64,000 nt of DNA from Acidobacteriota bacterium (lineage in GTDB: Bacteria; Acidobacteriota; UBA6911; RPQK01; JAPXNP01). This document shows, piece after piece, positions 25,628-61,243 of the stretch (position 1 is the stretch's first letter; the number at the start of each line of letters is the position of its first letter). Position numbers and translations under genes: made by a program. Under the pieces are notes generated by a model that had not been told where the DNA came from, did no database searches, and worked only from the letters and a program-made list of their open reading frames with translations. The DNA is taken from positions 9,999 through 73,998 of the forward strand of contig JARRKC010000013.1 in NCBI GenBank assembly GCA_037388505.1, written 5' to 3'.

Positions 25628-26674
25628 GTGAGATTGAGACGAGACGGGTTTCCGGCTTCCACCCGGTTCGAGGACCTGACTGAAGTGACCAAGAGCCTGC
25701 ATTTTCCGCTCAGGCATCTGCCGTTCATTGCAGCGGTAATGGTTCTCCTCACCCTTCCGACCCTGGGCGCGGTCTTGGAGTGTCGCATCGAGATCCCAGC
25801 CGGGCGCCGCCTTCCCGAACATGCTCAGATTGATTTGAGAAACGTTTCCGGCAGTCAGGTCGGCAGCGCTAGCGTTCAGGGCAATGGAACCGCCATATTC
25901 GATCGAGTGCCTGCCGGCTCCTACAGTGTCTCCGTCCGGGCCGAGGGTTTCCTACCGGTGACGCAGGATGTCGAGATTCCGAGCGGATACATCGGCAGCA
26001 GTCTTTTCAGCGTCACGATCCGCTTGAACCCCCAACCCCAGTCGGAGGGTCGGCCGCGAGGAGAGAAGACGGTCTCCGTCCAGTCTCTGAAAGTGCCTCA
26101 GGAGGCGATCGACGAGGTCGAACTCGCCGAGAAAGCCGCCGCAGAGGGAAGCTTTCAGGAAGCCATCGAGCACTGTAAGAAGGCGGTGGAAATCTACCCA
26201 GCGTACTTCCAGGCGTACAACAACCTGGCCGTGTATGAGTATCAGGCGGGCGAACCCGCGAAGGCCGTCGAGTTCTTCGAAAGGGCCCTTGTCTTGAACC
26301 CGGATGCAGTCGGCGCCAACCTGAACCTGGGTCGGGTTCTCATAGACCGGAACCGCCCGCAGGACGCGATTCGCTATCTCGAGCACGCCGCCAAGATCGA
26401 TCCGACGTCATCGCAGGTTCAATATCATCTGGCTCGGGCTTACATCCTCTCGGCTTCACTCTCCCAATCCGTCAAACCACTTCAGCTGGCCCTGGAACTC
26501 CAGCCACCGGTCGAACACGCCCGGTTTCTGCTGGCCCATGTCCTCTATCAACTCGGAGACGCCCCCCGGGCCGTCCAGGAACTCGAGCTTTACCTGAAGA
26601 CCAAGCCGAAAAACGAGCGCGAGCTGAAGCAGACTCTGAAAGCCTGGAAAGCAGCGGCCAAGGGCCAACGCTAG
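25628..26674 (+). CDS. Secreted CarboxypepD_reg-like domain + TPR repeat protein (paralog 1)
   Basis: PAGSYSVSVRAEGF…VEIPSG (carboxypeptidase regulatory-like fold) then TPR repeats (YNNLAVYEY…). GTG start; start uncertain (alternative ATG 25739). Confidence 0.55.
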   Translation: MRLRRDGFPASTRFEDLTEVTKSLHFPLRHLPFIAAVMVLLTLPTLGAVLECRIEIPAGRRLPEHAQIDLRNVSGSQVGSASVQGNGTAIFDRVPAGSYSVSVRAEGFLPVTQDVEIPSGYIGSSLFSVTIRLNPQPQSEGRPRGEKTVSVQSLKVPQEAIDEVELAEKAAAEGSFQEAIEHCKKAVEIYPAYFQAYNNLAVYEYQAGEPAKAVEFFERALVLNPDAVGANLNLGRVLIDRNRPQDAIRYLEHAAKIDPTSSQVQYHLARAYILSASLSQSVKPLQLALELQPPVEHARFLLAHVLYQLGDAPRAVQELELYLKTKPKNERELKQTLKAWKAAAKGQR

Positions 26675-26842: not shown

Positions 26843-27874
26843 ATGCACTTTCGGCTCGATCGCTGCCCGGGAACGGTTTTCGTGATCAAGAGTGCCGCAG
26901 CAGTTTTCATACTTGTCACCGCCCTCGCCACGGCTTGGGCTTTGCCGTTCAAGCACCTCTCCAACCGGATCGTGTGTCACCTCCAACCACCGCCAGGCTA
27001 TCCGATGCCGGACGGCGCGGTCGTCGATCTCAACCTGACCTCGGGTGGGCGAATCGGAACCGGTGACCCGTCCGGCAATGGTAGCTTTACTTTCAGCGAA
27101 TTGCCGCCAGGTCAATACACGATATCGGTGAAGGCGGAGGGATATGAGCCGATCGAACGGGACATCGAGGTTCCAAGCGGGTACCTTCACAACGTCGTTA
27201 ATGTCACTCTTAACCTGACTCCTCGGCCCCAAGCGAGCGGGGCTCCTCCCTCGAAGGAAGAACGAACGGTTGGGATCAAATCGCTGAGAATCCCCGCGGA
27301 TGCATTGGATGAACTCAAAGCCGCGGAGAAGGCGGCTGCCGACAAGAGCTTCGATCAGGCCATCCAGCATGCCGAAAGGGCGCTCGAGTTGTATCCGGAC
27401 TACTTCGAAGCTTATAACAACCTGGCCGTGTACCAGTCCAAGGTAGGGCAGAATGAAAAGGCGGTCTCGCTTTTTCAGAGAGCACTGACTCTCGAGCCCG
27501 ACGCAGTCGGCGCCAGTCTGAATCTGGGCCGAGTGCTCATAGGTTTGAAACGGCCACAGGAGGCGGCCCTCTATCTGCAGCATGCCGCAGACGTCGATCG
27601 AACTTCGTCGGAGATTCAATATCATCTGGCCCGGGCACTGATCCTCTGCCTACGGCTGCCCGACTCGATTCCGCGTTTGAGAATGGCCCTGAAGCTTCAG
27701 CCCCCCGTCAATCATGCCCGGTACCTTTTGGCCAATGTCCTGTATCAACTCGGGGATGTTTCCGAAGCGATACAGGAGATGGAAGCCTATCTCAAGACGA
27801 AGCCCCCCGAAGGGAGCGAATTGAAGCAACAGTTGAGAGCCTGGAAAAAGCTCGCAGCCTCCGCCGGAAAATAG
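26843..27874 (+). CDS. Secreted CarboxypepD_reg-like domain + TPR repeat protein (paralog 2, tandem duplicate of 25628-26674)
   Basis: Roughly half identical and collinear with paralog 1 (…PGQYTISVKAEGYEPIERDIEVPSG…YNNLAVYQSK…QEMEAYLKTKP…). Confidence 0.6.
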   Translation: MHFRLDRCPGTVFVIKSAAAVFILVTALATAWALPFKHLSNRIVCHLQPPPGYPMPDGAVVDLNLTSGGRIGTGDPSGNGSFTFSELPPGQYTISVKAEGYEPIERDIEVPSGYLHNVVNVTLNLTPRPQASGAPPSKEERTVGIKSLRIPADALDELKAAEKAAADKSFDQAIQHAERALELYPDYFEAYNNLAVYQSKVGQNEKAVSLFQRALTLEPDAVGASLNLGRVLIGLKRPQEAALYLQHAADVDRTSSEIQYHLARALILCLRLPDSIPRLRMALKLQPPVNHARYLLANVLYQLGDVSEAIQEMEAYLKTKPPEGSELKQQLRAWKKLAASAGK

Positions 27875-38262: not shown

Positions 38263-39417
38263 ATGATCCTCCTCCGAGTACTCGTCTGCCTGGGGTTTCT
38301 CCTCTCTCCTTCTCTGACCGCAAACAACGAACTACCGCCGCTGAAAGTCACGGCCTGGCTCCAGGCGCCGTCAGGCTTCAGCGGAGAGTGGAGCACACTG
38401 CGCGGCAAGGTCGTCGTCGTGGAGTTCTGGGCCACCTGGTGCTCCCCCTGCGTTTCCGCCCTGCCTCACTTGAACCAGTTGGCCGAGGAGTTTCAGAACG
38501 AAGATGTCCTGTTTCTCGCGATATCCGAAGACGACCCGAAACGTCTGGAGGGATTTCTGGCGGGTCAATCCGTTCGTGCCATTATCGGAATCGATGCCGA
38601 CCGCAAGACCTGGAAGGCCTTCGATGTCCCGTCGATCCCGCATACCGTCATCATCGACGCGAAGGGACGGCTGATCGGTGCGACAACACCGGAGCAGCTT
38701 TCAGCGGAACGCCTCCGGAGGGTCCTCGCCGGGGAAACCGCAAAGTTTCCGCCGAAGGAGGGAATACGCTGTGATCTCCAGTGGGACGAGGATTCCATCG
38801 AGTGGCAAGATGGTGTTCGACCGACGACCTACGCGATCATCAAGCCGATCAAAACCACCATGGGTGGCTATCTGCCTCAACCGGGCCACCTGACCGCGGA
38901 TGGAGTCCCTCTCAGGACTCTCGTTCAGATCGCGTATCAGACCGATCCCTTCCACATCGAATGGAACCTGCCCAGGGACGACCGGACCTACCGGGCTGCC
39001 TTTCGCGTTCCGTCAGGGCGGGAGCAGCGGCTCTTCCCCCTCATTCGGCAGACACTCGCGGATGCCTTCGGCTTCCGCGCACGCTGGGAGGAACGCCTGC
39101 ACGAGGTTCGTGTGTTGCGTCGCATCGAAGGAGGTTCGATCGTGCCCGAGTCCCGGGCCGATGAGGATCTGGTCCAGGTGATGAAAGGTCGGATTACTTT
39201 ACGCCGCCAACCTGTCAGCAGGCTCTGCCAGATTCTCACGCAGCATGGATTGGGGGCTATCGTCATCGACGAGACGGGAATGAACGGACTCTACGATTTC
39301 GATCTTCCCTACCAGCCGGGCCAACCCGAAGTGACGCTTGGGGCCCTCAATGAAGTTGGTCTCGAGGCGGTCGATGCTCGCCGCACGATTCGCATCCTCG
39401 TGGTCGATCGGCAGTAG
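38263..39417 (+). CDS. Secreted TlpA/ResA-like thioredoxin (WCSPC) fused to TIGR03435-like (Acidobacteria-specific) C-terminal domain
   Basis: Signal peptide; EFWATWCSPCVSALP CxxC; C-terminal region ending …GALNEVGLEAVDARRTIRILVVDRQ resembles the TIGR03435 ending (…GLKLE…VLVID…). Confidence 0.65.
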   Translation: MILLRVLVCLGFLLSPSLTANNELPPLKVTAWLQAPSGFSGEWSTLRGKVVVVEFWATWCSPCVSALPHLNQLAEEFQNEDVLFLAISEDDPKRLEGFLAGQSVRAIIGIDADRKTWKAFDVPSIPHTVIIDAKGRLIGATTPEQLSAERLRRVLAGETAKFPPKEGIRCDLQWDEDSIEWQDGVRPTTYAIIKPIKTTMGGYLPQPGHLTADGVPLRTLVQIAYQTDPFHIEWNLPRDDRTYRAAFRVPSGREQRLFPLIRQTLADAFGFRARWEERLHEVRVLRRIEGGSIVPESRADEDLVQVMKGRITLRRQPVSRLCQILTQHGLGAIVIDETGMNGLYDFDLPYQPGQPEVTLGALNEVGLEAVDARRTIRILVVDRQ

Positions 39418-47450: not shown

Positions 47451-47498
47451 CTTGACTCCGTTACACATGTCACTTAAGCTTCCGTTACACGGGTAACG
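47451..47498 (+). promoter_or_regulatory. Putative blaI promoter with TACA/TGTA-type operators (TTGACT-N17-TAAGCT; palindrome CGTTACAC-GGGTAACG)
   Basis: -35 TTGACT 47451-47456, -10 TAAGCT. ACATGT-centred half-site in the spacer. Perfect 6+6 inverted repeat CGTTAC…GTAACG at 47483-47498, 5 nt before the blaI ATG. Confidence 0.4.
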
Positions 47499-47503
47499 CC
47501 AAG

Positions 47504-47881
47504 ATGAGACTCTCCGCTACGGAATGGACGGTCATGAACGTGGTCTGGGAGGAGCAGCCGGTCTCTTCGCGAGACGTACATGACCGGGTCGCGGACGGAA
47601 CGGGTTGGGCTTTCGACACGGTCCGAACGATTCTGAACCGCCTGGCGAAGAAGGGCGCCCTGAAATCCGAGGTGCGAGGCGGTACGGCTTATTTCACATC
47701 TCTTCTGAGCCGGGAAGAAGCCCGTCAGTCGGCGCTCTCCTGGATCGCCGAGAAGGCCTTCGGTGGTGCCCGGGAGGCCATGATGCAGTTTCTGGTCAGC
47801 CGCCACGATCTATCCCCGGCAGAGCGGGAGACCCTGCAAAAGCTTCTGGCCGAGTTGGACAACGAGGAGTCGGAACCATGA
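47504..47881 (+). CDS. BlaI/MecI/CopY-family transcriptional repressor
   Basis: Penicillinase-repressor winged-helix N-terminus MRLSATEWTVMNVVWEEQPVSSRDVH…TVRTILNRLAKKGAL. Confidence 0.85.
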   Translation: MRLSATEWTVMNVVWEEQPVSSRDVHDRVADGTGWAFDTVRTILNRLAKKGALKSEVRGGTAYFTSLLSREEARQSALSWIAEKAFGGAREAMMQFLVSRHDLSPAERETLQKLLAELDNEESEP

Positions 47882-50628
47882 TCGAGACCTTGAACGAATG
47901 GGCGTCTCTGTGGTGGGCCTGGATGTCGCCGCTGACGCTTCAGGTCTCGCTTCTGATCGGTCTCGTCTATCTCTTCGAGCTCGTGACACGACGCTGGGTC
48001 TGGCCTCAGTTGCGGCTCGTGCTCTGGCTTCTCGTCCTCGCACGCCTCCTGCTGCCCCCATCATTGAGCTCGCCGTGGAGCGTGACAGCACCCATTTACA
48101 CGGAGACCACACAGCTTCTTCGGGCGTTCGTTTACCCTCAGGATCCGCCTGCCGTGGATCCGCCCCTGGATGCATCGACGGCGGTCTTCCCTGAGTTTCG
48201 ATCCGACGGCCCGGAGCTTTCCGGGCCTCGAGATCACAGCACGATCCAGGGCCGAGATCCACAACCTTCAGTTCTTCTTCGAGCCGACGGCGTCCCGCCC
48301 CGGCCGGGGCTGACCTGGCAGTCCTGGCTGCTGATTCTCTGGGCCGTCGGGCTGATCGTATTCTTCTCTCTTCTGGCGGCATCCGTCCATCGATTGAAGA
48401 AGGAGCTTTCCGGAACACGGCGGGATCCGGAACTGACCGACATCGCCTCGAGGGCCGCCAGAACCGCAGGATTGAGAGCGGCACCCGACGTCCGCATCTC
48501 CTCGAGCGTGCCGACACCCGCCGTCGTCGGTGTCTTGCGCCCTGCCGTCCTGGTGCCTAAAGACCATGCGTCGGTGCTTCGCCCCGAAGACGTCCGCAAT
48601 GCTCTCCTTCACGAGATGTGCCACATCAAGCGGCGCGACCTTCTCGTTCAAAGAGCAGCGCTTCTGCTGCATCTCCTGTACTGGTTCAATCCGCTGCTCT
48701 GGGTCGTTCGTCGAAGAATCCGCCACCTGACCGAGATGAGCTGCGATGCCCGTGTGGTTCGATTGCTTCGGGGAGAAACGGACAGCTATCGCGCGACGAT
48801 TCTGCGCGCACTTCGGCCTCTCCTCGACGGCCCCATGCCGAGCAGACTCGACCAACTCGGTCTCGTCGAATGGCCGGGCCGGCTGACGGACCGGCTGAAC
48901 TGGCTCACCCGGACCGTTGGATCGAGATTCCGTGTGCCGGTCGCCGCCGCCGTGTCACTGGTGGCGATCGCTCTCGTGCTTCCGATGGTGCCCCCGGCCA
49001 GGGGCGACGCCGACGGTTTCGCCATTCTGCGCATCACAACCTTCACTCCGGTCGGAAACGGACAGAGCTACTTGGAAGGCCTCGATCTGTTCATCGGAAG
49101 GCCCTCAGAGACAATGGGCCTTTGGTTCCTCGGCCAGTTCACTGATCCCGAGCAGCCCCGCCGGATGCAGATCAGCATGCAGGTCGACAATATGGGGCCG
49201 GTTGGCCTGTTTGATGGAGACGGGGACAGTCGTGTGCCGGGGGATCGTTTCGTTCGGGAGGATCGAGTTCTGCGACATCGGACGCTCGTCTACCGGACAG
49301 AACCACTGGGCGTCCGCGGCGACGTGACCGAGGAGTCCCTTGCGCCGGAGTTCGGGTCTCGGTCACTGAAGAGCCTCACGGCATCTCGAGACGGAATTAC
49401 AGAAACCAGGACGGTCTTGATTCGAGGCGACGAGAGGCTTGCGGATTCGCTCGGTCTACCCGATCTGTCGGAAGAGTCTTTGCGGAAACGCTATCCCGGG
49501 CCGACGGAAATGAGTTCCGAGAAGGTCCAACAGTCCTTCCCGAAGGTCATCGCCCTGATGAACGATCAGTTGGAGAATCTCAGCTCGATGTCCCTCGTGA
49601 GCGACTACCGGGAATCCGTGCGGAAGGCGGCCCGATCGCTCGTCTGGGAAGAGACGGGTCCCGAGGTCACCAGTCGTGCCTTCGAATATCCCCTCGCGTA
49701 CCAGGAAACGGCTGTCATCGGTCCCGGCAAGAAGTACTTCCTGACGCGTCGTGGCGTGGACGTCATCCACCGATGCCAGGAAGACGGGGGCATCCTCGAG
49801 AGCTATCCGGTCGGTCCGGAGACGCTCGCCGCAACCCACCGGTCCTTCACCGTTGATTCGCAGGGGCATCTGGTCACCCTCCTCCAACGACCCGATTCCT
49901 TCAAGACCTTGCGTCGAGGAGAGTTGGTTCGGATCTTCGAATCGCCCGAGTCGTACACCGAAATTCCCCTCGCGCCCCCGGTCCGGTGGCCGATGGATCT
50001 CTCGATCGATGCGGCCGGCCGATACTACGTGCTGCGATGGCATGCCACTGCGGCCGACGTTCGCCGGATGGGACGAGAACTCTTGCCCCCCGCCTCTCAC
50101 TCGCTCTCGGTCGACCGCTACTCACCCGGTGGGAAACTCGAACAATCTCTGCTGCTGGATTCTTTCCTGACGGATGCACCGGCGGGCCACACCTGGAACT
50201 GGCCAAGGCCGGCCAGCCTCGCAGTTCTGGGAGACGGACGGACATTCATCCTTGCGTTGAGCAACCGGAAGGAGGGCGGAGCTCGGGTCACCTCGGGTCG
50301 CTTGTTTGAAGTCGATTGGCGGGGCTCGATTTTGCGTCCGGTTCCGCTCGAAGTTCCGGCAGCAGGACCGGTCACTTTGACCGACGTACATGGCCTTGGG
50401 AACATCCTGGCTCTGGAATGGTCGGATTACACGTCCATCCCGGAGGGACAGCCATCGATATCGACGCTTACAGTGAAGAGACTGCAACTCTGGCAGGACG
50501 GCGCGAACGAGCCCCTGGTCAACATCCGGGGAATCATCGAGGCCGTCTCCGGGGATCAGGCGCTCGTCACCCGAGCGGTGGCGGGAGGACCCGACACGCC
50601 GTCACTCTTCCTGGTGACTTACCGTTGA
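47878..50628 (+). CDS. BlaR1-like M56 family zinc-metallopeptidase signal transducer with ~600-aa non-PBP extracytoplasmic C-terminal domain
   Basis: ATGA overlap with blaI. TM helices, HEXXH (ALLHEMCHIKRRD), then a large domain of unknown family. The ORF-track 47605 start is an upstream extension. Confidence 0.8.
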   Translation: MIETLNEWASLWWAWMSPLTLQVSLLIGLVYLFELVTRRWVWPQLRLVLWLLVLARLLLPPSLSSPWSVTAPIYTETTQLLRAFVYPQDPPAVDPPLDASTAVFPEFRSDGPELSGPRDHSTIQGRDPQPSVLLRADGVPPRPGLTWQSWLLILWAVGLIVFFSLLAASVHRLKKELSGTRRDPELTDIASRAARTAGLRAAPDVRISSSVPTPAVVGVLRPAVLVPKDHASVLRPEDVRNALLHEMCHIKRRDLLVQRAALLLHLLYWFNPLLWVVRRRIRHLTEMSCDARVVRLLRGETDSYRATILRALRPLLDGPMPSRLDQLGLVEWPGRLTDRLNWLTRTVGSRFRVPVAAAVSLVAIALVLPMVPPARGDADGFAILRITTFTPVGNGQSYLEGLDLFIGRPSETMGLWFLGQFTDPEQPRRMQISMQVDNMGPVGLFDGDGDSRVPGDRFVREDRVLRHRTLVYRTEPLGVRGDVTEESLAPEFGSRSLKSLTASRDGITETRTVLIRGDERLADSLGLPDLSEESLRKRYPGPTEMSSEKVQQSFPKVIALMNDQLENLSSMSLVSDYRESVRKAARSLVWEETGPEVTSRAFEYPLAYQETAVIGPGKKYFLTRRGVDVIHRCQEDGGILESYPVGPETLAATHRSFTVDSQGHLVTLLQRPDSFKTLRRGELVRIFESPESYTEIPLAPPVRWPMDLSIDAAGRYYVLRWHATAADVRRMGRELLPPASHSLSVDRYSPGGKLEQSLLLDSFLTDAPAGHTWNWPRPASLAVLGDGRTFILALSNRKEGGARVTSGRLFEVDWRGSILRPVPLEVPAAGPVTLTDVHGLGNILALEWSDYTSIPEGQPSISTLTVKRLQLWQDGANEPLVNIRGIIEAVSGDQALVTRAVAGGPDTPSLFLVTYR

Positions 50629-51006
50629 AGCGCCGTCTTGAGGACCGCGTTTCAGGATTGCGTCCCTCGCTGGGGCGCCTGCAAGTTGGGTGGATTCGGC
50701 GAACCCGGGGTGGTGCTTGCCGGTCGGTCCCGATTGACCCCGAGCTGGGATCGTGCCCCTCGAGGGTATCCGGTTGTTGAGTTCGCCCTTCGCTGACCGA
50801 ACCAGTTCGGGGCCTTGGCCCCGGCAGGGGCCGGATTCCTCTTGCCCGGGGCCAAACCGCTTCGGTCCGGCCCCGGCTTTGGCGGGCCAAAGCGACCAAG
50901 TCCGCTCCGGTGAGGGGCGGGATATCGCTTCGATTCGCCGCTTGGAACAACTCCGACGCGAACACGTCGTGAACGGCTCATCCTGCAGCCGGAGGAGGCA
51001 TCGACA

Positions 51007-52839
51007 ATGAAACACCGTCATCTCCACACATTTTCGATTGGATCGGCCGGCGTCCTCCTTTTCCTCCTGATCGGAGGCACCTGCGAATCCAGTCTCGCAG
51101 AGATCATCGTGCCCGGCGAGCGTGTGCACTGGGGTGACACGATTCACGTCGTCGTGAAGCCGAATCCGGAGAGGGGGCTCTATCCCGGCGACCGAGCCTG
51201 GCTGACAGTCGGCTTCTGGCGCCAGGGAGTGGAATTCATCCGATACGAGCCGCTCCAATCGGAGGGAGGGCAGTTCAGCTGCGATCTGACTCTGCCGGAC
51301 GACTGGGAGTACGCGAACGCCAGCGTCGTGACGACTGAGAGGTGGATCCCAGGCGGAAAGGGCCTGGCTGCCCTTGATCGAAACGGAGAGATTCCCCCGG
51401 GCGCACCCGTTCTCGAGACCAGCTTCATCTGGAACGGCTCCTCCCGGCGAGCCGACTGGGAAGCCGTTGCGAAAGCTGAACTGTCGCGGTACCCGACTCT
51501 CTGGTGGCTCTATCCCGAGGTTTGGGGACTTCATTTCATGGCGAGCGGAGGCAAGGTTCCCGTCGAGCTGATCCGAGATCAGCTCCCGTTCCTCGAACAG
51601 GCCGACGAGAGCGCCGTACTCCTGCGGGTATTGATGCAGGCAAACTGGGAGCTCGGAGAGACCACCGAGGCACTGCGGCAGTTGGAGCGTCTGTGTGAGC
51701 ACTACCCGGACTCCCGCGATACGATTCGAGCACTGAACAAAGCCGGCTATGAGATTTTCAAGAGGGGATTGCTCCCGGTTTCGAATGAGAGATGGAAAGC
51801 TCTGGCGGCTCAGGCCGTCAACGGTGCCCCCGACAACCCTGCGTTGCGAGTTTATGATATCGGTCTCTACTCGAACGAAGCGATTACGCTCGCTTCGTTC
51901 CGTCGGCTTTTCGAAGCCTGGACGAAGGATGACGGCGAGAGTCCCTACCCTTACATCCTACTGGCTCGAGCTCTCGCCCGCGAAGAGACGGAATTGGACC
52001 GAGCAGAAAAGCTTCTCACTCGAGGTCTCGAACTGTCGTTCGCCGTGCGACCGGTCCTGCTCTACGCACGGTACCCCGGCCTGGCTTTTCGTCTCCGTTC
52101 CGATTTGCGTGCTCGACGAGCCGACACCGCCGGAGCGCTTGCCGATATCCGGGCTGCGCAAGCTCTGGCTCGGAAGGGTGATCCGACGGACATCGAAACA
52201 GAGGCCGAAATCTGGCTTCAGGCGGGCAGGCCCGTCAAGGCGGAAACGGTGGCCCTGGAAGCGTACCGCAAGGGATCCCTCGAGGCCGAGGCATTCGTCA
52301 AGGATCTCTACGCGACGCGCACCGGTCGCTCGAACGGAGCGGAGGAGTATTTCTGGAGCCGGCTGACGGAGGGTGCCGACCGGCCCGGCGATCCTTCCGA
52401 CGAACCGGAAGACGCTCCCCATTTCGAGGGCGTGACCCTGGAGGGCCGTCGAGTCGACAACGCCTCTCTGAAGGGCAAGGTGGTCGTCCTGAACTTCTGG
52501 TTCACCACCTGCGGCCCCTGCATCGGAGAAATGACGGAGCTGAACGAGCTGGTTCGGGACTTCGGCGACCGGGTCCGCTTTCTGGCCTTCACCCACGAAC
52601 CACCCGAGATGGTTCGGACGTTCCTCGAGAGTCACGAATTCGATTATGAGATCGTCCCGAATGCGCGCGAGATCGAGGAATCCTTCGGCATCGGCTCACA
52701 CCCGACGCACGTTCTCATCGATCAGAAGGGCAAAGTCCGCTGGCAGGGCCTGGGAGCCAACCCCGACAACCTCAAGCGCCTCCGCGCGACTATCCAGCGA
52801 GTCCTGACAATAGGTGACACGCACGTAGTGAGTCCGTAA
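51007..52839 (+). CDS. Secreted TPR-like helical domain + C-terminal TlpA-like thioredoxin (CGPC) protein
   Basis: Signal peptide; C-terminal VVVLNFWFTTCGPCIGEMTEL… thioredoxin fold. Confidence 0.55.
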   Translation: MKHRHLHTFSIGSAGVLLFLLIGGTCESSLAEIIVPGERVHWGDTIHVVVKPNPERGLYPGDRAWLTVGFWRQGVEFIRYEPLQSEGGQFSCDLTLPDDWEYANASVVTTERWIPGGKGLAALDRNGEIPPGAPVLETSFIWNGSSRRADWEAVAKAELSRYPTLWWLYPEVWGLHFMASGGKVPVELIRDQLPFLEQADESAVLLRVLMQANWELGETTEALRQLERLCEHYPDSRDTIRALNKAGYEIFKRGLLPVSNERWKALAAQAVNGAPDNPALRVYDIGLYSNEAITLASFRRLFEAWTKDDGESPYPYILLARALAREETELDRAEKLLTRGLELSFAVRPVLLYARYPGLAFRLRSDLRARRADTAGALADIRAAQALARKGDPTDIETEAEIWLQAGRPVKAETVALEAYRKGSLEAEAFVKDLYATRTGRSNGAEEYFWSRLTEGADRPGDPSDEPEDAPHFEGVTLEGRRVDNASLKGKVVVLNFWFTTCGPCIGEMTELNELVRDFGDRVRFLAFTHEPPEMVRTFLESHEFDYEIVPNAREIEESFGIGSHPTHVLIDQKGKVRWQGLGANPDNLKRLRATIQRVLTIGDTHVVSP

Positions 52840-52938: not shown

Positions 52939-53328
52939 CTAGACAACCTTCGGCATGCGGAAGGGCTCCACCGTCTTGTGGAACGCCCGGAGGTACAGGG
53001 GGAACTCCGGGCTATAAAAGAGATGCGTCGGACAATCGCAATCACTCGAGCCGAACCCGGCCGGTCCCGGTGTGAGGATCGAACCCATGGCTTCGGCAAG
53101 CGCGCACTCCTGGCGCAGGGACGAGCGGATGGGGAGCGCGCGACACTCCAGAGCTGCCTCTCGCAGGTAGTCCACGTGCCAGCGAAAGCGCTTTCGGTGC
53201 CGCAGGTGACGGGCAATTCTCGCCGTCAGATTCCGCATCGCCGAACCGACATAGACGTACCAGCCGCTCTCAAACCTCAGCTCTCCGAGCTTTCCGACAC
53301 AGATCGGACGATTTTCGGTGAGCTTCAT
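52939..53328 (-). CDS. DUF123-family protein (predicted nuclease-like; GxYxYVGSA / HWHxDYL motifs)
   Basis: …GWYVYVGSAMRNLTARIARHLRHRKRFRWHVDYL… Start placed at ATG 53328, overlapping the sfsA 3' end by 59 nt; true start uncertain (ORF extends to 53598). Confidence 0.4.
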   Translation of the reverse strand: MKLTENRPICVGKLGELRFESGWYVYVGSAMRNLTARIARHLRHRKRFRWHVDYLREAALECRALPIRSSLRQECALAEAMGSILTPGPAGFGSSDCDCPTHLFYSPEFPLYLRAFHKTVEPFRMPKVV

Positions 53329-54076
53329 CAGCAGAAGATAGGCGCCGCAGTCCTGCGCCTCCCTCTCGATGAAGGCCCAAGGAATCGACAGCGGCTTGGG
53401 CCGACCCTTCAGCCTCAATGACGATGTCCATCCCAGGGCAACCGGAAGAATACGTGTGATAGTCCGGAAGGAATCGTTCGACTCGATTGGAATGGACCAG
53501 GAACAAGACCACTGGTTTCGGTTCATCAGTTCGTGCAGCATCGGACCCAAGTCCAGCCAACTCCAATAGATGCCGTCGGCCCCGTTCCGTGACGGCATCC
53601 GGAAAGAGGGCGGCGCCGTTGCCGAACAGGGTCACCGACTTCACTTCGAGGAAAAACCTCTCTCGGTTCTCCTCCATCAAGAAGTCGAAGCGGCTGGATC
53701 CGAGCGGAACCTCCGATCTGACGACTTTGGCAGATTCCAAGCCCGGGATCCGCTGCTGTTCGAGCAGGTTTCGGGCGACGGCGTTGGTCTGGTGAGTGTG
53801 GATGAAGATCGTCTCGCCCTCCCGGTCGACGGCCCAGGCCGTGTAGCGGGTCTTTCTGGGAGCCCTCCGATGGGCACGCGGCACTCTCCTTCGAGAGGAC
53901 TCGAGTTCGTCCGCCAGGTAGATGGTCACCCCGGGGAGCAGAAGTTCGTCGAGCCTGCCGGAGTTCGGCATTTGCGCTTCGACGACACCCCTTCCGTGGA
54001 TGCGACAACGGACGAGAAACCGGTTCGGACGTTCGACGAAGATGCCCTTTACCAAGCGACCCGGCACGAGATCCAT
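53270..54076 (-). CDS. sfsA: SfsA (sugar fermentation stimulation protein A) family nuclease-like DNA-binding protein
   Basis: Collinear with E. coli SfsA from N-terminus through …FFLEVKSVTL…FPDAVTERGRRHLLEL…VLFLVHSNRVERFLP…. Confidence 0.7.
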   Translation of the reverse strand: MDLVPGRLVKGIFVERPNRFLVRCRIHGRGVVEAQMPNSGRLDELLLPGVTIYLADELESSRRRVPRAHRRAPRKTRYTAWAVDREGETIFIHTHQTNAVARNLLEQQRIPGLESAKVVRSEVPLGSSRFDFLMEENRERFFLEVKSVTLFGNGAALFPDAVTERGRRHLLELAGLGSDAARTDEPKPVVLFLVHSNRVERFLPDYHTYSSGCPGMDIVIEAEGSAQAAVDSLGLHREGGAGLRRLSSADEAHRKSSDLCRKARRAEV

Positions 54077-55024: not shown

Positions 55025-55098
55025 CTCCCCCTTGGGACTTCCCGGGATCTCCGGAGCGGATGGGTCGCGGCGCAATCTCAAGACATCCGCAGCCGGCC

Positions 55099-56334
55099 CT
55101 ATGGCTTCCGCTTCAGCTCGACACGCCGGTTCAGAGCCCTTCCCTGCGCGGTCTCGTTACCGGCCACCGGCCGGTCCTCTCCGTAGCCCTGAGGCTCGAG
55201 TCGTCCGGAATCGATTCCCTGTTCGACCAGCCACGCCACAACGGAGCGGGCGCGGCGCCGCGAAAGATCCCGGTTGTAGGCGGCGTCGCCCGTGGAGTCG
55301 GTGTGACCTTCAACGATGAGAGCGAGCTCCGGTTGCTGTTCCATCACGTTCAGCACTTCCTGAAGCGTAGCCTCAGAGTCGGAGCGCAGCCGGTCCGAAT
55401 CGAGGTCGAAGTGAATGCCATAAACGATGGCCCGGCCACTCTCCCGGAGCGACTTCTGGAGGGATCCCTCGTGTTGGAGTTGACAGGAGGGTCGTTCGCC
55501 GGGCGCGGCGCGGGAGCCCACCCAGAACCCTCTGTAGGCCCCCTTCTCATACCAGAGTCCATTCAGTTGGTCGCCCGTCGAAGAGAGCACCATGAGAGCT
55601 GTTCCGATCTGCTGTCCCTCGTTTTCGCGCCACTCGAACTGGATGACCCGACCATCGAGATTCCCGCTGAGCGAGCCCTGGTCCCAGTCATAACAGCCGC
55701 TGATACTGGACCCGTCCTGCGCGAAGAGAACAAGGCCGAAGTTGGTCCGATAGACCCCCGAAACCCGAACCTCCGACGCTTCTTCTTCCAGTTGTCGACC
55801 ATACGCTTCCAGTTCCATGAGCTCGGTGTAGCTTTCCTGACCCCAGTTCGACAGGATGACAATCTTGAGCCATCGAGCCTGCGTACCTGCCGCGAACTCG
55901 AACTGAGTGCGGCTTCCCTTTTCGGCCTCCACTCCGAGGACTTCGGAAAAGGGGCCCGTAGGACCTGCACTGGAAGTCCACACTCCGATTCGGCGCGCCG
56001 AGATCCCCGGATAAGAGTCTTCCTGAGCGGTCGAGTTGTCGAACACGATCGAGGTGAGCTGACTCGGTCGGTCCAGTTCGATGACGACCTGATGCGGAAA
56101 GGCGGCACCTTCAGCCGTGCACCAACCCTGTTCCGCCGTGTCGTCGAGTACCAGGAGAGCCGCCCACTTCTCATTGAACTGGCTCGACTGAGAGAGCACA
56201 ACCGCTCCTTCGGCAAGATTCAGAAGGTCAACGGAGGGCTGCCCGTTGTTTTGCTCCGCTCGTGTCGAACCGATACAAAGAGAGAAGCAGACGAAGAGAA
56301 CCAAATGGCACGATGGCCGGACAGAAATGTTCAT
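55099..56334 (-). CDS. OmpA-family peptidoglycan-binding protein with N-terminal F5/8 type C (discoidin-like) domain
   Basis: C-terminal OmpA_C motif (…EGHTDSTGDAAYNRDLSRRRARSV…NRRVEL); signal peptide from ATG 56334. Confidence 0.7.
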   Translation of the reverse strand: MNISVRPSCHLVLFVCFSLCIGSTRAEQNNGQPSVDLLNLAEGAVVLSQSSQFNEKWAALLVLDDTAEQGWCTAEGAAFPHQVVIELDRPSQLTSIVFDNSTAQEDSYPGISARRIGVWTSSAGPTGPFSEVLGVEAEKGSRTQFEFAAGTQARWLKIVILSNWGQESYTELMELEAYGRQLEEEASEVRVSGVYRTNFGLVLFAQDGSSISGCYDWDQGSLSGNLDGRVIQFEWRENEGQQIGTALMVLSSTGDQLNGLWYEKGAYRGFWVGSRAAPGERPSCQLQHEGSLQKSLRESGRAIVYGIHFDLDSDRLRSDSEATLQEVLNVMEQQPELALIVEGHTDSTGDAAYNRDLSRRRARSVVAWLVEQGIDSGRLEPQGYGEDRPVAGNETAQGRALNRRVELKRKP

Positions 56335-56691
56335 TGTCCTGAGGAATGCACCACAAATGCCGCCTCCTGGGAATTGACCTCGGACTGCTCCTTTAGGCAA
56401 AACGACACCTCCTCGGCTGACGACTGGTCAATACGAACTGGCGGATCGCGTTCATCATATACAGCGTCCCTGTCGGACCGACGGGAGCCTTGCCCTCTGA
56501 AGCATGCGGTGGATGCCGATCACATAGCTCCGTCACCGGTCACCCATTCACCCGAATTCACCAGGCGCAGCGTCAGTGCGCGAACGCACGTGAGCGATCC
56601 CGCTCACGGTCGCCGGCTCCCTGTCTTCCCCCGGGGCACGAGCACCGGCGGCAATCTACCGCATCGGCACGAGCCGAAGAACCAAGGTGGT

Positions 56692-56748
56692 CCAAAAGGG
56701 ACAGGTTCGTTCTCGCCCGAAGAGTCGAAAGGGACAGGCTGGTTCTCG
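56692..56748 (+). repeat. Second tandem pair of the GAAAGGGACAGGYTNGTTCTCG repeat
   Basis: Copies at 56692-56715 and 56726-56748, between the divergent OmpA-like and lipoprotein/TlpA genes. Confidence 0.7.
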
Positions 56749-57022
56749 TCAGGTACGGGCGGCTCTCATCTCGATAGGATCCGCCGAGTCCAGTCGTTGG
56801 TGTGCGTTGACCTTGCTGCGGCCGTTCTTCTGCTTTGAGATTCCCGTAGGGCGAGCCCCAGTTTCGGAAGCCCGGCCTCTCGGGCTGTCATGAAATTGGT
56901 CGACTCGTTGCGAATGCCCGGATCTGGCGATATAGGATCTTGATCATATCGTCTTTTCGCGGACAGTAGGAGAGAAAGTACTATCCGACTCGGGCCAGGG
57001 CCTGACGAGCAGGAAGGGGATC

Positions 57023-57358
57023 ATGAGACGATCCAAGGCTTCATCTTTCTTCATCATGGTATCGCTGTTGGGTTGCGCGGCGGCATGCCGATCGGGAAAA
57101 CCCGATGACTTGACGCCCCGGTATCTTTCCTCACCTACCCCACAGAACCTGCAGGCCCCGCCACTTACTCTCCGCAAACGGATCGTTCTCCGGGATTGTG
57201 AGAGTCTGTCGATGCAGTACGTTCTCACGGTTACTCCCGCCGAAGATGCTTATTACCTGTTCACCTCGCAGGGAATCGGTCAAATCGATTCTACGGGGCG
57301 ACTGGTGCGGCTCCTGGGGGACGACCTCGTCAAGCAGCGAACGCAGGACGTTCGGTGA
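57023..57358 (+). CDS. Lipoprotein N-terminal fragment (possible 5' part of a frameshifted lipoprotein-TlpA gene)
   Basis: Lipobox MVSLLGCAAAC. Protein-like sequence ends at TGA 57358, while a different frame carries protein-like sequence from ~57366 onward. Confidence 0.35.
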   Translation: MRRSKASSFFIMVSLLGCAAACRSGKPDDLTPRYLSSPTPQNLQAPPLTLRKRIVLRDCESLSMQYVLTVTPAEDAYYLFTSQGIGQIDSTGRLVRLLGDDLVKQRTQDVR

Positions 57359-58319
57359 TCCAAGCCATGAGTATAGAAAGAGTTTTCTACCTCGGTTCCT
57401 CCTCGCAACGGATTCCCGTGCGGAGATCTTCGCCGTCAATGCTATTGATTACGAGATTAGAAAGTATGACAGCCGAGGTGACTACATCGGCGACTTCCGC
57501 CTCTGCGAGGATGAGGACTATCGACCTCCTCCAGAATCCGTCGACGTTGAGCGGCTCAGCACCGACCTCGACTGGCGGACTGATTGGGCCAACACCTGGA
57601 CCCGGCTCAAGAACGTAGAAACGATCGACGACCGTTACCTGATCGTCCAATTGACGTCCCCCGAGTCGCAAAGGTACCGCCTGCAATTCTATTCCCTCGA
57701 CGGAGCGGTCGCCTTCAAGCCAATCGACTGGGATCTGGAACTGGCCGATGCCGATCAAGCGGGAAATCTCTACTTCGAGGAGAGGGACGCGGGCGGCGGC
57801 GTCACGGCTCTGGATGTCTACGGACTCGGACCCAAGAGGGACGAAGCTCGGCAGACGCTGGTTCCTGCTGTGACGGGCATGACAAATCGACGGGCTGAAT
57901 CTCCGGTGCCGGCGCCTGAATTCTCGGTCACTGATCTCGAAGGAAACGAGTTCTCGTTGGAGAATCTACGAGGACGCGTGGTTCTGGTGACTTTCTGGTC
58001 CATCGGCTGTTCTCCTTGTCGAGCGGAGGTACCTCGACTGAACGCACTGGCAGAGGAGTTCAAGGGTCTGCCCGTCACTTTTCTCGCGCCGACACCGGAT
58101 GGAGCCAAAGCGCTGCAGCAATTCCTATCAACGACCGATTTCCGGTTCCGGGTTATCAATTATGCGGGCACGGACTTGGCGGATCGCTTCGGTGTCCACG
58201 GCAGTATCCCCGTTCATTTCCTGATCGATAAGAAAGGGAATGTCGATTCGGTGATCAACGGCGCCGTAGTGAACGACGAGCGGCTCGGTCGGCGAGTCAG
58301 GCAGTTGCTTGACCGCTGA
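57198..58319 (+). CDS. TlpA/ResA-like thiol:disulfide oxidoreductase domain protein (upstream region probably frameshifted, so start unreliable)
   Basis: C-terminal thioredoxin fold VVLVTFWSIGCSPCRAEVPRL. The first ~55 codons of this ORF (Cys/Ser/Arg-rich) look non-coding. Confidence 0.5.
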   Translation: MRVCRCSTFSRLLPPKMLITCSPRRESVKSILRGDWCGSWGTTSSSSERRTFGDPSHEYRKSFLPRFLLATDSRAEIFAVNAIDYEIRKYDSRGDYIGDFRLCEDEDYRPPPESVDVERLSTDLDWRTDWANTWTRLKNVETIDDRYLIVQLTSPESQRYRLQFYSLDGAVAFKPIDWDLELADADQAGNLYFEERDAGGGVTALDVYGLGPKRDEARQTLVPAVTGMTNRRAESPVPAPEFSVTDLEGNEFSLENLRGRVVLVTFWSIGCSPCRAEVPRLNALAEEFKGLPVTFLAPTPDGAKALQQFLSTTDFRFRVINYAGTDLADRFGVHGSIPVHFLIDKKGNVDSVINGAVVNDERLGRRVRQLLDR

Positions 58320-58435: not shown

Positions 58436-61243
58436 CTACCTGGCCCTACGGTGCTGCAAAGCCCGGAGGATGGCATCGATCACATCGTCAAGATGCTTTC
58501 CGAGATCTTGCGCAAGGAATCGCAGTACCAGATAGCCGTTCTCCTGCAGCAGATAGTCCTTGCGGCGATCGCGACGATAAGCGTCCGTGTCGGCGACGTG
58601 TTGGGGGCCATCGACTTCGAGGACCAACCTGGACTCAGCACAGAGGAAGTCCACCTCCATCGCTCCCCGTCCGTCGAAGGGGATCGGCAATGTCACGTTC
58701 AGTTGAAACCGCCCGGCGGTCTGGGGGAGCGTTTCCAGACGCCGGAAAAGGAAGGCCTCACTGCCACTTCGAGCCCGGCCGACCTCCGTCGCATCGGCGG
58801 ACGGAGTTCTGGTTGCGCGGACGAACAGATCGGCCAGCGGCTTATCCACGCCGTCTCGAACCAGCCTCCGGACACTGGCTGCATAATCCTCTTTCCAATC
58901 GGGATCGACGGGGAGCGACACGTCTGTGGGCCAGCCGGGCAACGCGTGGGCCGGCAGGATGATCTTGTATCCCGCCGCCTCGTAGCCTTTGCAGCGTCGG
59001 TCGAACATCCGCGCCAGCATAGGCACGTTCAGATCGGCATAGTCATAGACTCGAACTTCACGCTTCCTTTCATGCAGACGATGGAGCCGGCCGAGATACT
59101 GTGCGATCGTCCCCCGCCACGAGACGGGAAGAGTTAGAAACAGAGTATCCAACCGGGCATCGTCGAATCCTTCTCCGATGAAGCCACCGGTCGCCAAGAG
59201 AACACGCTCCTCAGTCTCCGGGATCGCGGCCAGCTGGGCTCGTGCTTCCCGAAGGGCCTTGCGTCCCATGCCGCCCCTCAACGTGACCAAGTGCGTCACT
59301 CGATCCGACAACGCCCGAGCCAGGATATCGAGATGCTCGTTGCGTTCGGTCAGAACGATGGGCGAGCGACCTTCTCGGACCGTCTGCACGACGTCCTCAC
59401 AGATGGCGCGGTTTCTTCTTTCATCGACGGTCAACTCATCATAGAGATCCTGAAATCGCAATCGGACATCGGGATCCGCAGGTCGAAGCGCACGAAAATC
59501 CGTAGGACGAACCAGCACCTTATGATCGAAGGGACGTCGGGCAGCCTGCCTTCTGGGATCCACGCGGTATCGGATCGGACCGCACTGCATGAAAATGATG
59601 GGATGGTGGCCGTCCTTGCGGATGGGCGTCGCCGACAGGCCGAGCACGAACTTCGACTTCGCCTCACGTGCAGCCAATTCGAAGCTGTGTGCAGGAATGT
59701 GGTGGCATTCGTCGACGATCAAATGGCCATATCGGCTCACGAGGTCGTCGACCTCCCCCTTGCGGACCAGGCTCTGGATCACCGCCACGTCCAGGAGACC
59801 CGTGGGCTTCTTTCGTCCTCCGCCGATGGTACCGATGCTCAACCTGGAAAGGCCGAGGAACGAGCTCAGTCTCTCGACCCACTGCTCGAGCAACTGTCTC
59901 CGATGAACGATCACCAGGGTATTGACACGGCGCCGGGCGATCATCCACGCGGCCACGACCGTCTTTCCGAAAGCCGTCGTCCCGGACAGCACCCCGATGT
60001 CGGAGACCAGCAGCGCGTCGGCGGCGAGCTTCTGCTCCGGCCGCAGGCGGCCCTGGAATTCGACATCCAGCGGCTCACCGCAGTAGCGTTCCTCCCGGAT
60101 TGCGGTTTCGATCCCAAGATCGGAGAGAAGCTGCATCAGGTCCTCCAAACATCCCCGTGGAAGGCCGACGTGCCGCGGGTAGTCTCGGGCACATCCGATG
60201 ATGCGAGGTTTGCGGAAGGTGGGAAGCCGCATCGCCTGGGCCCGGTAGAACTCGGGGTTCTGAAAGGCAGCCAGACGGATCAACCGGTTACGTAAGGCTG
60301 GCGCCAAGTCCTCTTTGGGAATGAAGATCTCATTTCCCAGAACGATCTCGAGCCGTTCCGGCAGCGGACCCGTGACGGGTGGGCCGACCCATCGGCGTGA
60401 CGGAGACGTCTTCCAGGGAGTCGCATCGTCGTCATCGGGCGCGAGGCGCACGCCGAGGATTCTCCCGCGGGCTTCCGCTTCGTCGACAACCGCTTCCACT
60501 TCAGCGCGCGTCATCTTCCGGATTTTCGACAGGAAGCTCCACTGATCCGAATAAGGAACAAACTGGTCGTCAACAAAGACTGAGTTTCCACCTTCCCTGG
60601 GTCCCTTTTGAAGGGGAAGGGCGATGAGATTGCCGAATCCGCCCTTCGGCAGGGTATCCTGATTCGGAAAGAGACGATCATACGAATCCAGGCCGATGTC
60701 CGGGCAACGCTCCATGGTTTCGGTCAAGATGAATGTGCCGAGCGAACGTGCCATTCGCGCGGGAATCGACTCATCGAAGAAGAACCACACATGGGCGCCG
60801 CCGCCGGACCGCGAGCGTTCCATGGCTGCCGGAAGATCAAACACGCGGCAGGTCTGAAGGAAGGCCAGTGCGTCCTCCTGCCAGTTCTCCTTGTCGAAGT
60901 CGGCAGCCAGAAAGAAGCAGGTTTCGTCCCGGAGCATCGGGTAGACGCCGACTACGCAATCCTGTTCCCGATCGTCTCGTCCCTCCAGATGGAAGCGGAT
61001 GACGTCGTCCGTCACGGCCAGAAAGCGCTGATGTGGACAGCGACTGCATTTGATCTTCGGCTTCTCGCACACGCCGGCCACCCACTCGTTCCCACAAGCC
61101 GGAGAGTATCCGGACCGGCCCGTCCTGCGGCTTTCGAATCGCCGCGGATACACGTCCTCGCGTCCTCGGAACAAGGACCGAAAGAGCGCGATCTTTACTT
61201 CCGGAGGAGAATGAAGATCGACGGCTAACGGCACTTCATCCAC
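58436..61243 (-). CDS. Multidomain protein: Zn-ribbon + archaeo-eukaryotic primase-polymerase (Prim-Pol) + XPB/Rad25-like SF2 helicase + C-terminal DUF559 (Vsr-like endonuclease fold)
   Basis: AEP motifs I FLAADFD, II SGGGAHVWFFF, III GLDSYD. Helicase motifs I GTTAFGKT, II VDECHH, III LSATP, VI QYLGRLHR. DUF559 …LVLEVDGPQHV…YRRDRRKDYLLQENGYLVLRF…. Confidence 0.8.
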   Translation of the reverse strand: MDEVPLAVDLHSPPEVKIALFRSLFRGREDVYPRRFESRRTGRSGYSPACGNEWVAGVCEKPKIKCSRCPHQRFLAVTDDVIRFHLEGRDDREQDCVVGVYPMLRDETCFFLAADFDKENWQEDALAFLQTCRVFDLPAAMERSRSGGGAHVWFFFDESIPARMARSLGTFILTETMERCPDIGLDSYDRLFPNQDTLPKGGFGNLIALPLQKGPREGGNSVFVDDQFVPYSDQWSFLSKIRKMTRAEVEAVVDEAEARGRILGVRLAPDDDDATPWKTSPSRRWVGPPVTGPLPERLEIVLGNEIFIPKEDLAPALRNRLIRLAAFQNPEFYRAQAMRLPTFRKPRIIGCARDYPRHVGLPRGCLEDLMQLLSDLGIETAIREERYCGEPLDVEFQGRLRPEQKLAADALLVSDIGVLSGTTAFGKTVVAAWMIARRRVNTLVIVHRRQLLEQWVERLSSFLGLSRLSIGTIGGGRKKPTGLLDVAVIQSLVRKGEVDDLVSRYGHLIVDECHHIPAHSFELAAREAKSKFVLGLSATPIRKDGHHPIIFMQCGPIRYRVDPRRQAARRPFDHKVLVRPTDFRALRPADPDVRLRFQDLYDELTVDERRNRAICEDVVQTVREGRSPIVLTERNEHLDILARALSDRVTHLVTLRGGMGRKALREARAQLAAIPETEERVLLATGGFIGEGFDDARLDTLFLTLPVSWRGTIAQYLGRLHRLHERKREVRVYDYADLNVPMLARMFDRRCKGYEAAGYKIILPAHALPGWPTDVSLPVDPDWKEDYAASVRRLVRDGVDKPLADLFVRATRTPSADATEVGRARSGSEAFLFRRLETLPQTAGRFQLNVTLPIPFDGRGAMEVDFLCAESRLVLEVDGPQHVADTDAYRRDRRKDYLLQENGYLVLRFLAQDLGKHLDDVIDAILRALQHRRAR

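Follow-up and report, generated by a model that had tools for sequence, protein, structure and literature searches.

The 64,000-nt stretch of the Acidobacteriota bacterium contig JARRKC010000013.1 analysed here (the window) carries a two-gene operon, in which blaI, encoding a repressor of the BlaI/MecI/CopY family, is followed by the gene of a BlaR1-like M56 membrane protease. The pair is interpreted as a regulated-proteolysis switch of the BlaI/BlaR1 type whose sensor has been exchanged (probability about 0.7), with a receptor that most likely senses an envelope ligand other than a β-lactam. What is new is the sensor, a six-bladed propeller, as modelled, situated behind a proximal domain. This interpretation is supported by the alignment of the HExxH motif and its downstream Glu, the membrane topology, a set of predicted operators that is unique in the window, the pattern of nonsynonymous divergence (dN) along the M56 gene and the reuse of the regulatory layout at a related locus (L003). 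Homologous loci and proteins are referred to by the prefixes L and P, respectively.

The repressor gene and its promoter

The coding sequence of blaI begins at position 47504, the earliest in-frame start codon past a stop; an earlier, sequence-only reading had placed the start at 47451, which falls on the -35 box TTGACT (47452-47457). The product was matched by Penicillinase_R (PF03965) over profile positions 1-114 of 115 (E = 2.9e-29; 102.2 bits, cut-off 22.6), the family with a winged-helix N-terminus and C-terminal dimerisation helices, and the alignment of residues 3-118 with the sequences of the MecI (1okr) and BlaI (1sd4) crystal structures is free of gaps. Its scores stayed below the cut-offs of the NCBIfam models of β-lactam-related BlaI/MecI proteins (NF012168, 62.3/180; NF000243/4, 42-46/250; NF000186, 37.9/250) and of the copper-related CopY model (TIGR02698, 70.3 vs 121.95). 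A blaI-M56 pair was present at all five sensor-bearing loci (the window, L001, L002, L003/L004 and L009), and a second M56 or BlaI homologue was not detected by tblastn in the window.

Upstream of blaI, a -35 box, an operator-like dyad, a -10 box and another such dyad follow each other in an order that is the same in the window, L001, L002 and L003 (alignment A7). The first dyad, CCGTTACACATGTCAC, has one mismatch to GTTACANNTGTAAC, and only two sites with at most two mismatches to GTTACANNTGTAAC were found in the 64 kb (0.22 expected), both of them in the blaI promoter. When the window was scored with a position weight matrix (PWM) derived from the sites at every locus, the two dyads reached 21.7 and 21.4, compared to 12.3 for the best site outside this promoter. 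Repressors of the BlaI family bind TACA/TGTA inverted repeats in their own promoter; the two predicted operators found here are of this type, have no further copy in the 64 kb and are shared by four loci. The layout resembles the classical autoregulated BlaI/MecI/CopY promoter, and binding of BlaI is predicted on this basis. Since the dyads are confined to the blaI promoter within the 64 kb, autoregulation is the sole output that can be predicted.

The M56 protease module

The 916-aa protein encoded by the second gene is named 'MAG: M56 family metallopeptidase [Acidobacteriota bacterium]' by NCBI (MAG, metagenome-assembled genome), and its ATG overlaps the TGA of blaI as ATGA. Peptidase_M56 (PF05569) was matched by residues 149-311 (E = 8e-37; 127.4 bits, cut-off 31). 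Residues 205-310 were aligned to the sequence of the cryo-EM structure of S. aureus BlaR1 (8exp), in which the HEMCH motif has its counterpart and TEMSCD (starting at residue 285) is paired with NEVEAD, its Glu being the predicted third zinc ligand; profile match, HExxH and downstream Glu together place the protein in peptidase family M56. Four hydrophobic helices were recognised by hydropathy (residues 19-37, 45-63, 152-170 and 353-371), and the loop at 171-345 is assigned to the cytoplasm because it contains 31 Lys and Arg residues (positive-inside rule). The predicted topology is that of BlaR1 and of the M56 family in general, with four transmembrane (TM) helices, the protease loop inside and residues 372-916 outside. 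The sequence-only reading was thus correct in describing a BlaI/BlaR1-type pair (E = 2.9e-29 and 8e-37 for the two families, far from anything expected by chance) with a canonical M56 domain (HEMCH), a TM region of four helices and an ATGA overlap. It had also proposed an extracytoplasmic C-terminus of about 600 residues; a tail on the outside is indeed predicted, its length being about 545 aa.

Between the window and L001, dN was lowest in the protease core (aligned codons 201-350; 0.18-0.19), rose to 0.43-0.52 in the extracytoplasmic L2 loop and was highest in the proximal ectodomain, the linker and the first blades (0.45-0.59), with intermediate values in the C-terminal part of the propeller (aligned codons 701-850; 0.26-0.27). 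This gradient fits a conserved transducer joined to a fast-changing, ligand-facing surface. The ratio of dN to synonymous divergence (dS) proved unusable as a test for positive selection on the ectodomain, with dS saturated at 1.1-2.0, and positive selection can therefore not be claimed.

The ectodomain

Pfam and NCBIfam scans gave no match in residues 312-916 of the M56 protein. The models of β-lactam sensor-transducers of the BlaR1/MecR1 type (NF000326, NF033108/9) did not recognise it, the generic BlaR1 model reached 94.6 bits (cut-off 400) and matched the protease part alone (positions 103-269 of 585), and no Transpeptidase or β-lactamase family of Pfam was matched. A degenerate class-D-like domain hidden in the proximal part was considered and rejected: the S-S-E-K motif ('MSSEKV') is not conserved in the homologues, the sensor half of the generic BlaR1 model remained unmatched, and the predicted secondary structure is all-β, followed by helices.

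Residues 366-916 were modelled with AlphaFold2 (AF2) on an 8-sequence alignment. The first ~225 residues of the modelled segment obtained pLDDT values (the confidence measure of the model) below 50; in the remainder, block means lay mostly at 63-96, with a few blocks at 37-57. This remainder consists of 24 strands that form six four-stranded blades round a central axis, as expected for an NHL-like propeller. Its structural hits were the NHL domain of Brat (1q7f; score 19.2), DUF4221 (3s9j; 17.8), the NHL domains of Mei-P26 and TRIM71 (7nyq and 6fpt; 16.6-17.7), the extracellular sensor of the M. tuberculosis kinase PknD (1rwi; 16.4) and TolB, lactonases and sialidases (several entries; 14-16), at sequence identities of 5-13%. 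No Pfam match to NHL (PF01436) or another propeller family was obtained at E ≤ 0.1 for the window protein, P0004 or P0006-P0009, and the best hit of a PDB profile search was virginiamycin B lyase (E = 0.14). The model gives residues ~595-916 the fold of a six-bladed NHL-like propeller, which lies outside the described sequence families. The claims that the sensor lacks a domain of the penicillin-binding or class-D-like kind and falls into none of the described sequence families were borne out, the Pfam and NCBIfam scans being empty and the structural neighbours listed being propellers and LolA-like folds; a class-D β-lactamase, the outcome that would have spoken against them, was not obtained in the structure prediction, which gave the propeller instead.

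Remodelling of the proximal ectodomain on its own did not improve the confidence (pLDDT 44), and a Pfam search at E ≤ 10 was empty for all five members. The resemblance to LolA is therefore treated as a lead only; the modelled domain is possibly LolA/RseB-like. The homologues P0002, P0004 and P0006 have Cys at two conserved positions of this region (the fragment P0003 covers the second only), and these residues probably form a disulfide. In the window protein, both are replaced by Ser (49240-49250 and 49365-49375; residues ~455 and ~497), a paired loss. The only cysteine of its ectodomain, C633, corresponds to Val in P0006, and no CxxC motif is present.

The sensor module is very rare, with eight representatives among 1.84 billion proteins: a phmmer search of that representative set with residues 366-916 returned eight relatives only. 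A word-indexed search of 5.8 billion proteins yielded three relatives, and a profile search of the same set with alignment A1 retrieved these three proteins and nothing further. Scanning of GTDB genomes gave two loci, one of them already known, and a metagenome scan with the free-standing propellers gave P0009 again and no others. Four proteins of 902-916 aa are full-length M56 fusions, namely the window protein, P0002 (51-53% identity), P0004 (40%) and P0006 (29%); P0007-P0009 (324-376 aa) are secreted and free-standing, with similarity confined to the last ~300 residues of the sensor. The taxonomically labelled fused copies are from Acidobacteriota MAGs (the window record, L008, which is identical to L002, and L009), the others from metagenome contigs. 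As a side observation, P0005 (141 aa) joins the translated blaI promoter region and the C-terminus of BlaI (…MQFLVSRHDLSP…ETL) directly to the last ~100 residues of the propeller, which are 73% identical; it is either the locus of a relative with two internal deletions or an assembly artefact.

Coordinates of the features discussed (positions refer to the window unless a homologous locus is named)
Feature	Position	Strand	Size or score	Basis or remark
-35 box TTGACT of the blaI promoter	47452..47457	+		Read from the sequence; L001, L002 and L003 have TTGACT, TTGACA or TTGCAA here
Operator-like dyad 1, CCGTTACACATGTCAC (TACA-N2-TGT core)	47458..47473	+	PWM 21.7	Fills the 17-nt spacer
-10 box TAAGCT	47475..47480	+		17 nt past the -35 box; assigned from position and conservation (TAGCAT or TAGAAT in homologous loci)
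Operator-like dyad 2, CCGTTACACGGGTAAC (palindrome GTTAC-N4-GTAAC)	47482..47497	+	PWM 21.4	Over the predicted transcription start
blaI, BlaI/MecI/CopY-family winged-helix repressor	47504..47881	+	125 aa	PF03965 match and gapless MecI/BlaI alignment
M56 (BlaR1-like) membrane zinc metalloprotease with novel ectodomain	47878..50628	+	916 aa	NCBI MEJ2145147.1
Transmembrane/protease module, residues 1-371 (TM1-TM3, L2 loop at 62-146, cytoplasmic gluzincin domain, TM4)	47878..48990	+		PF05569, hydropathy and 8exp alignment
HEMCH zinc-binding/catalytic motif, residues 245-249	48610..48624	+		Alignment to S. aureus BlaR1
Proximal ectodomain, residues ~380-515	49015..49422	+		β-rich, tentatively LolA/RseB-like
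Predicted helical linker, residues ~519-587	49432..49638	+		Helices in both AF2 models, low confidence
Six-bladed NHL-like β-propeller, residues ~595-916	49660..50625	+		AF2 model
Secreted TPR + TlpA/ResA-like thioredoxin protein, adjacent gene	51007..52839	+	610 aa	MEJ2145148.1; probably not part of the system
L003 second near-consensus promoter: TTGACA, 18-nt spacer with TTTACAGTTGTAGT, TATTAT, GTTATAGTTGTAGA	L003 3841-3885			After the M56 gene, ahead of the Cys-rich/propeller pair
L003 Cys-rich secreted protein	L003 4181-4480		99 aa	About 10 Cys
L003 free-standing secreted propeller paralogue	L003 4530-5585		351 aa
L005 Cys-rich secreted protein	L005 5571-5957		128 aa	Pair with the following
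L005 free-standing propeller	L005 6001-7131
L006 Cys-rich secreted protein	L006 326-613		95 aa	Pair with the following
L006 free-standing propeller	L006 667-1704

Proposed mechanism

In the resting state, BlaI, presumably dimeric like BlaI and MecI, would occupy the two TACA/TGTA-type dyads and, being bound in the promoter spacer and over the start site, keep expression of the blaI-M56 operon low. The M56 receptor is predicted to cross the membrane four times, with the zinc protease (HEMCH and downstream Glu) in the cytoplasm and residues 372-916 outside. By analogy with BlaR1/MecR1 of S. aureus and B. licheniformis, a ligand other than a β-lactam would bind to the outer module, the signal would pass through TM4 and the L2 loop to activate the protease, and its activity would lead to cleavage of BlaI and derepression of the operon. 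As a serine-acylation domain is missing, the ligand should not be a β-lactam that acts by acylation. The preferred candidate is a protein, peptide or glycan on the face of the propeller; a lipid or lipoprotein in the proximal domain, if that domain is LolA-like, comes second. Effector genes beyond autoregulation are probably located outside the 64-kb window.

Several observations weigh against this interpretation. The scissile N101-F102 dipeptide of MecI/BlaI is aligned to F96-L97 in the window BlaI (Q95-F96 lies one position earlier), and the sequence of the cleavage site is thus not conserved. The blaI promoter was missed by a generic promoter scan, which is attributed to the weak -10 box TAAGCT, and the PWM scan of the 64-kb window returned no target gene besides the blaI-M56 operon. 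In addition, the alignments underlying the two AF2 models contain just 5-8 sequences, and the proximal ~230 residues, a third of the sensor, were modelled with pLDDT values below 60.

The neighbouring thioredoxin gene and the alternative explanations

The gene downstream of the M56 gene had been read as encoding a secreted TPR protein with a CGPC thioredoxin domain, and these features were all recovered: a signal-peptide-like hydrophobic N-terminus, an N-terminal region that is β-rich by inspection, one TPR_14 repeat (residues 205-243) and an AhpC-TSA/Redoxin domain (469-591; AhpC-TSA, 4.1e-17; Redoxin, 1.6e-15) with CGPC at residues 502-505 (52510-52521). Although the match to the ResA subfamily model (3.4e-18) was below its cut-off, the thioredoxin fold, the CxxC motif and the export signal are those of a TlpA/ResA-like periplasmic thioredoxin. 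The two further thioredoxin-fold genes reported for the window are likewise real, 38263-39417 (Redoxin and DUF3738, CSPC) and 57198-58319 (C-terminal Redoxin, CSPC); they lie at distances of 8-9 kb and 6.5 kb, and the unrelated genes that separate them from the blaI-M56 operon include those of an ABC-type MacB permease, a P-type ATPase and DUF123, SfsA and OmpA-like proteins. In its own right, the gene at 38263-39417 (+ strand), which encodes a secreted CSPC thioredoxin fused to DUF3738/TIGR03435, is an instance of an M56-type 'sensor' domain outside M56 proteins.

From these neighbours, an envelope thiol/redox or unknown-ligand sensing circuit had been proposed; in a redox circuit, the ectodomain would sense thiol-disulfide stress and the TPR-CGPC thioredoxin, perhaps together with the other two, would be the output, expressed by read-through from the blaI promoter. 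The arrangement lends itself to this idea: the thioredoxin gene is on the same strand as the operon, 378 nt downstream, with no convincing terminator in between (terminator-like hairpins are no more frequent than by chance, 3 vs 3.9 expected), the order blaI-M56-TPR/thioredoxin is repeated in L001, and three secreted CxxC thioredoxin-fold genes lie inside 20 kb. A conserved blaI-M56-thioredoxin module was not found, however, the co-occurrence being limited to the window and its closest relative, L001. At the loci of more distant sensor homologues, the M56 gene is followed by what looks, from its sequence, like a ribbon-helix-helix-type antitoxin and by a PIN-domain protein (L002) or by a small Cys-rich protein and a propeller paralogue (L003/L004), and no thioredoxin gene lies downstream. 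Conversely, neither blaI nor an M56 gene was detected within 7 kb of the three examined orthologues of the TPR-thioredoxin (L011-L013; 63, 54 and 53% identity; contigs of 106 kb-1.6 Mb), each of which stands alone behind a gap of roughly 400-780 nt. No BlaI-type operator was found in the 378-nt gap of the window or at the corresponding position in L001, and alignment of the region upstream of the thioredoxin gene across five loci revealed neither a conserved promoter or operator nor conservation of the gap. The single, unconserved cysteine of the ectodomain, which has no CxxC and shows Ser/Ser at the Cys pair of the homologues, speaks against thiol sensing as well. The divergence of the genes between the window and L001 is discordant. 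The TPR-thioredoxin is 93% identical in amino acid sequence (dS 0.17), compared to 80% for BlaI (dS 0.93), 63% for the membrane/protease part of M56 (residues 1-371; dS 1.09), 51% for its ectodomain (dS 1.11), and 75% and 73% for the flanking MacB-like (dS 0.63) and OmpA-like (dS 0.77) proteins. Its dS is about five times below that of the blaI-M56 pair, and the discordance (0.17 vs 0.93-1.11) implies that the thioredoxin gene has a history separate from that pair. A block of 93.5% nucleotide identity (window 51003-52839, L001 9917-11763) extends from 4 nt before its start codon to its stop, whereas the other syntenic genes share 71-82% nucleotide identity (dS 0.63-1.11); this suggests recent transfer, gene conversion or unusual constraint. 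Read-through from the blaI promoter into the TPR-thioredoxin gene is conceivable; the gene is most likely a mere neighbour, and the proposed redox circuit appears quite unlikely.

Alternatively, the M56 fusion could detect a disulfide-rich peptide or protein secreted by the cell itself or by a competitor and switch on a response, with the propeller as a domesticated version of a free-standing secreted copy whose partner is a small cysteine-rich secreted protein. The free-standing paralogues carry signal peptides, and the copy in L003 matches the sensor propeller profile with an hhalign probability of 99.2% (E = 1.6e-19). In three of four loci with a free-standing propeller, a secreted protein of 95-128 aa with about 10-11 Cys is encoded directly upstream (the fourth contig is too short); neither member of this pair has a Pfam family. 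The pair in L003, the locus of the distant homologue P0006, follows blaI-M56 directly, behind a second near-consensus promoter (TTGACA/TATTAT) whose two BlaI-type dyads are arranged like those of the blaI promoter. These findings hint that disulfide-rich secreted proteins are partners of the propeller family and that one of them may be sensed by the fused copy. On the other side, only three or four examples are available, and the Cys-rich proteins are mutually only about 20% identical, so that their homology is unproven. Convincing BlaI-type operators were not found upstream of the pairs in L005 and L006, nor in L007. When the window was scanned for open reading frames (ORFs) of small Cys-rich secreted proteins, all candidates proved to be off-frame artefacts caused by GC-rich DNA, and tblastn detected no second propeller in the 64 kb. 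Adjacency, moreover, is no proof of binding, and the receptor function for such a peptide is considered unlikely. It would be bolder still, and is improbable, to regard the propeller family, free-standing and M56-fused, as an undescribed kind of receptor for small secreted disulfide-rich proteins, in which the fusion senses a peptide toxin or signal and controls a peptide-plus-propeller cassette through BlaI operators, for which the L003 promoter would be the model, the CGPC thioredoxin of the window having been recruited as a disulfide-reducing countermeasure. If this were true, BlaR1-type signalling would extend from small-molecule antibiotics to proteinaceous ligands. An indirect sensor of cell-wall or β-lactam damage, comparable to the sensor-less mycobacterial BlaR, would bind muropeptides, lipoproteins or lipids through the propeller (as in TolB) or the LolA/RseB-like domain. 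However, the similarity of the propeller is generic (5-13% identity), the LolA-like assignment derives from a model with a pLDDT of 44, and no cell-wall gene was present among the ORFs scanned, which makes such a sensor very improbable. No β-lactamase or penicillin-binding protein (PBP) gene was found either among the 33 large ORFs of the window that were scanned, which agrees with the previous view that the operon does not serve antibiotic resistance. Reading the operon as a proteolytic switch with an exchanged sensor is preferred.

Other genes in the window

A gene on the minus strand (58436-61243) encodes a 935-aa defence-type protein with a primase of the TOTE conflict systems (AEP; E = 2.4e-98), a ResIII/DEAD helicase and DUF559; in L001, a fragment of its orthologue adjoins the thioredoxin gene. 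The long ORF at 55060-56838 (+ strand) has no family match. Its syntenic counterpart in L001 is a gene on the minus strand with OmpA and F5/8-type-C domains, and the real gene of the window is probably located at 55099-56400 (- strand), with 73% amino acid identity to L001. The tandem paralogues at 25628-26674 and 26843-27874 (+ strand) each combine a CarboxypepD_reg-like domain with TPR repeats, and the gene at 13690-16917 (+ strand) encodes a hybrid histidine kinase of 1075 aa, in which four or more PAS domains are combined with HisKA_3, HATPase_c and a receiver domain. The DUF123 ORF (52939-53598) and the SfsA ORF (53270-54076), both on the minus strand, overlap by about 330 nt as listed; because the DUF123 domain begins at residue 108, the start of the former is probably further downstream.

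Comparison with known systems

BlaR1/MecR1 serves as the standard example of a receptor through which the binding of an extracellular ligand leads to proteolysis of an intracellular repressor, and mechanistic knowledge of it comes almost entirely from the β-lactam sensor. The operon described here represents a natural sensor swap on the BlaR1 transducer, of which few natural variants are at hand for comparison, and supports the notion that environmental bacteria use M56/BlaI as a general one-step signalling device of modular build. The operon offers a tractable case for the activation of an M56 protease by non-acylating ligands, with defined predicted operators, a probably soluble ectodomain and a candidate regulon in a related locus. 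For annotation, such genes should not be taken as β-lactam resistance determinants; a 916-aa protein of the same 90%-identity cluster is labelled 'beta-lactamase regulating signal transducer' in JGI/IMG.

With the BlaI/BlaR1 and MecI/MecR1 systems of S. aureus and B. licheniformis, the window shares an operon of a BlaI-family repressor and a four-TM M56 zinc protease, the HExxH motif with downstream Glu in a cytoplasmic protease loop, an extracytoplasmic C-terminal sensor and two TACA/TGTA-type dyads, here predicted operators, in an autoregulated promoter. It differs in the sensor, which is class-D-β-lactamase-like in those systems and a module of ~545 aa ending in a six-bladed propeller here, in the absence of an adjacent β-lactamase or PBP2a gene, in the scissile N-F dipeptide, which is not conserved, and in scores far under the NCBIfam equivalog cut-offs. 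The staphylococcal order, blaR1-blaI, is the reverse of that in the window. Exchangeable C-terminal modules on an M56 transducer are also seen in the fusions to TonB_C (Bacteroidota) and DUF3738/TIGR03435 (Acidobacteriota), but the module of the window matches none of those families and is far rarer. An M56 domain reportedly occurs among the TonB homologues of B. thetaiotaomicron in one study, and DUF3738/TIGR03435 is mostly found as the C-terminal module of M56 proteins in Acidobacteriota; literature searches on TIGR03435/DUF3738 gave no matches.

BlaIR systems that are unresponsive to β-lactams or have no sensor for them have been described in M. tuberculosis and M. abscessus, together with PvmSR of P. 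aeruginosa (bioRxiv 10.64898/2026.08.03.742534). Like the operon of the window, they combine an M56 protease and a BlaI-family regulator, lack a penicillin-binding domain and are not dedicated to β-lactam resistance (bioRxiv 10.64898/2026.08.03.742534). They have essentially no ectodomain, in contrast to the large two-part ectodomain found here, which makes a dedicated extracellular ligand probable. As M56/BlaI pairs without a penicillin-binding domain and M56 proteins with other C-terminal modules are already documented, the principle is not new; a description of an M56-propeller fusion did not turn up in literature searches, in which one genome report was met whose title and abstract give no sign of it.

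Outside the M56 proteins, PknD (PDB 1rwi) is a precedent for an extracellular NHL propeller that acts as a sensor. In PknD and in the Bacteroides hybrid two-component systems with periplasmic propellers, the output is a kinase, whereas it is a protease here; the PknD propeller is about 13% identical to that of the window, which has no Pfam match to NHL or Reg_prop. RseB/MucB of the sigma-E pathway, which has the LolA fold, possibly shares the fold of the proximal ectodomain, and the general logic would be common to both systems: a periplasmic, ligand-binding β half-barrel gates a proteolytic cascade in the membrane.

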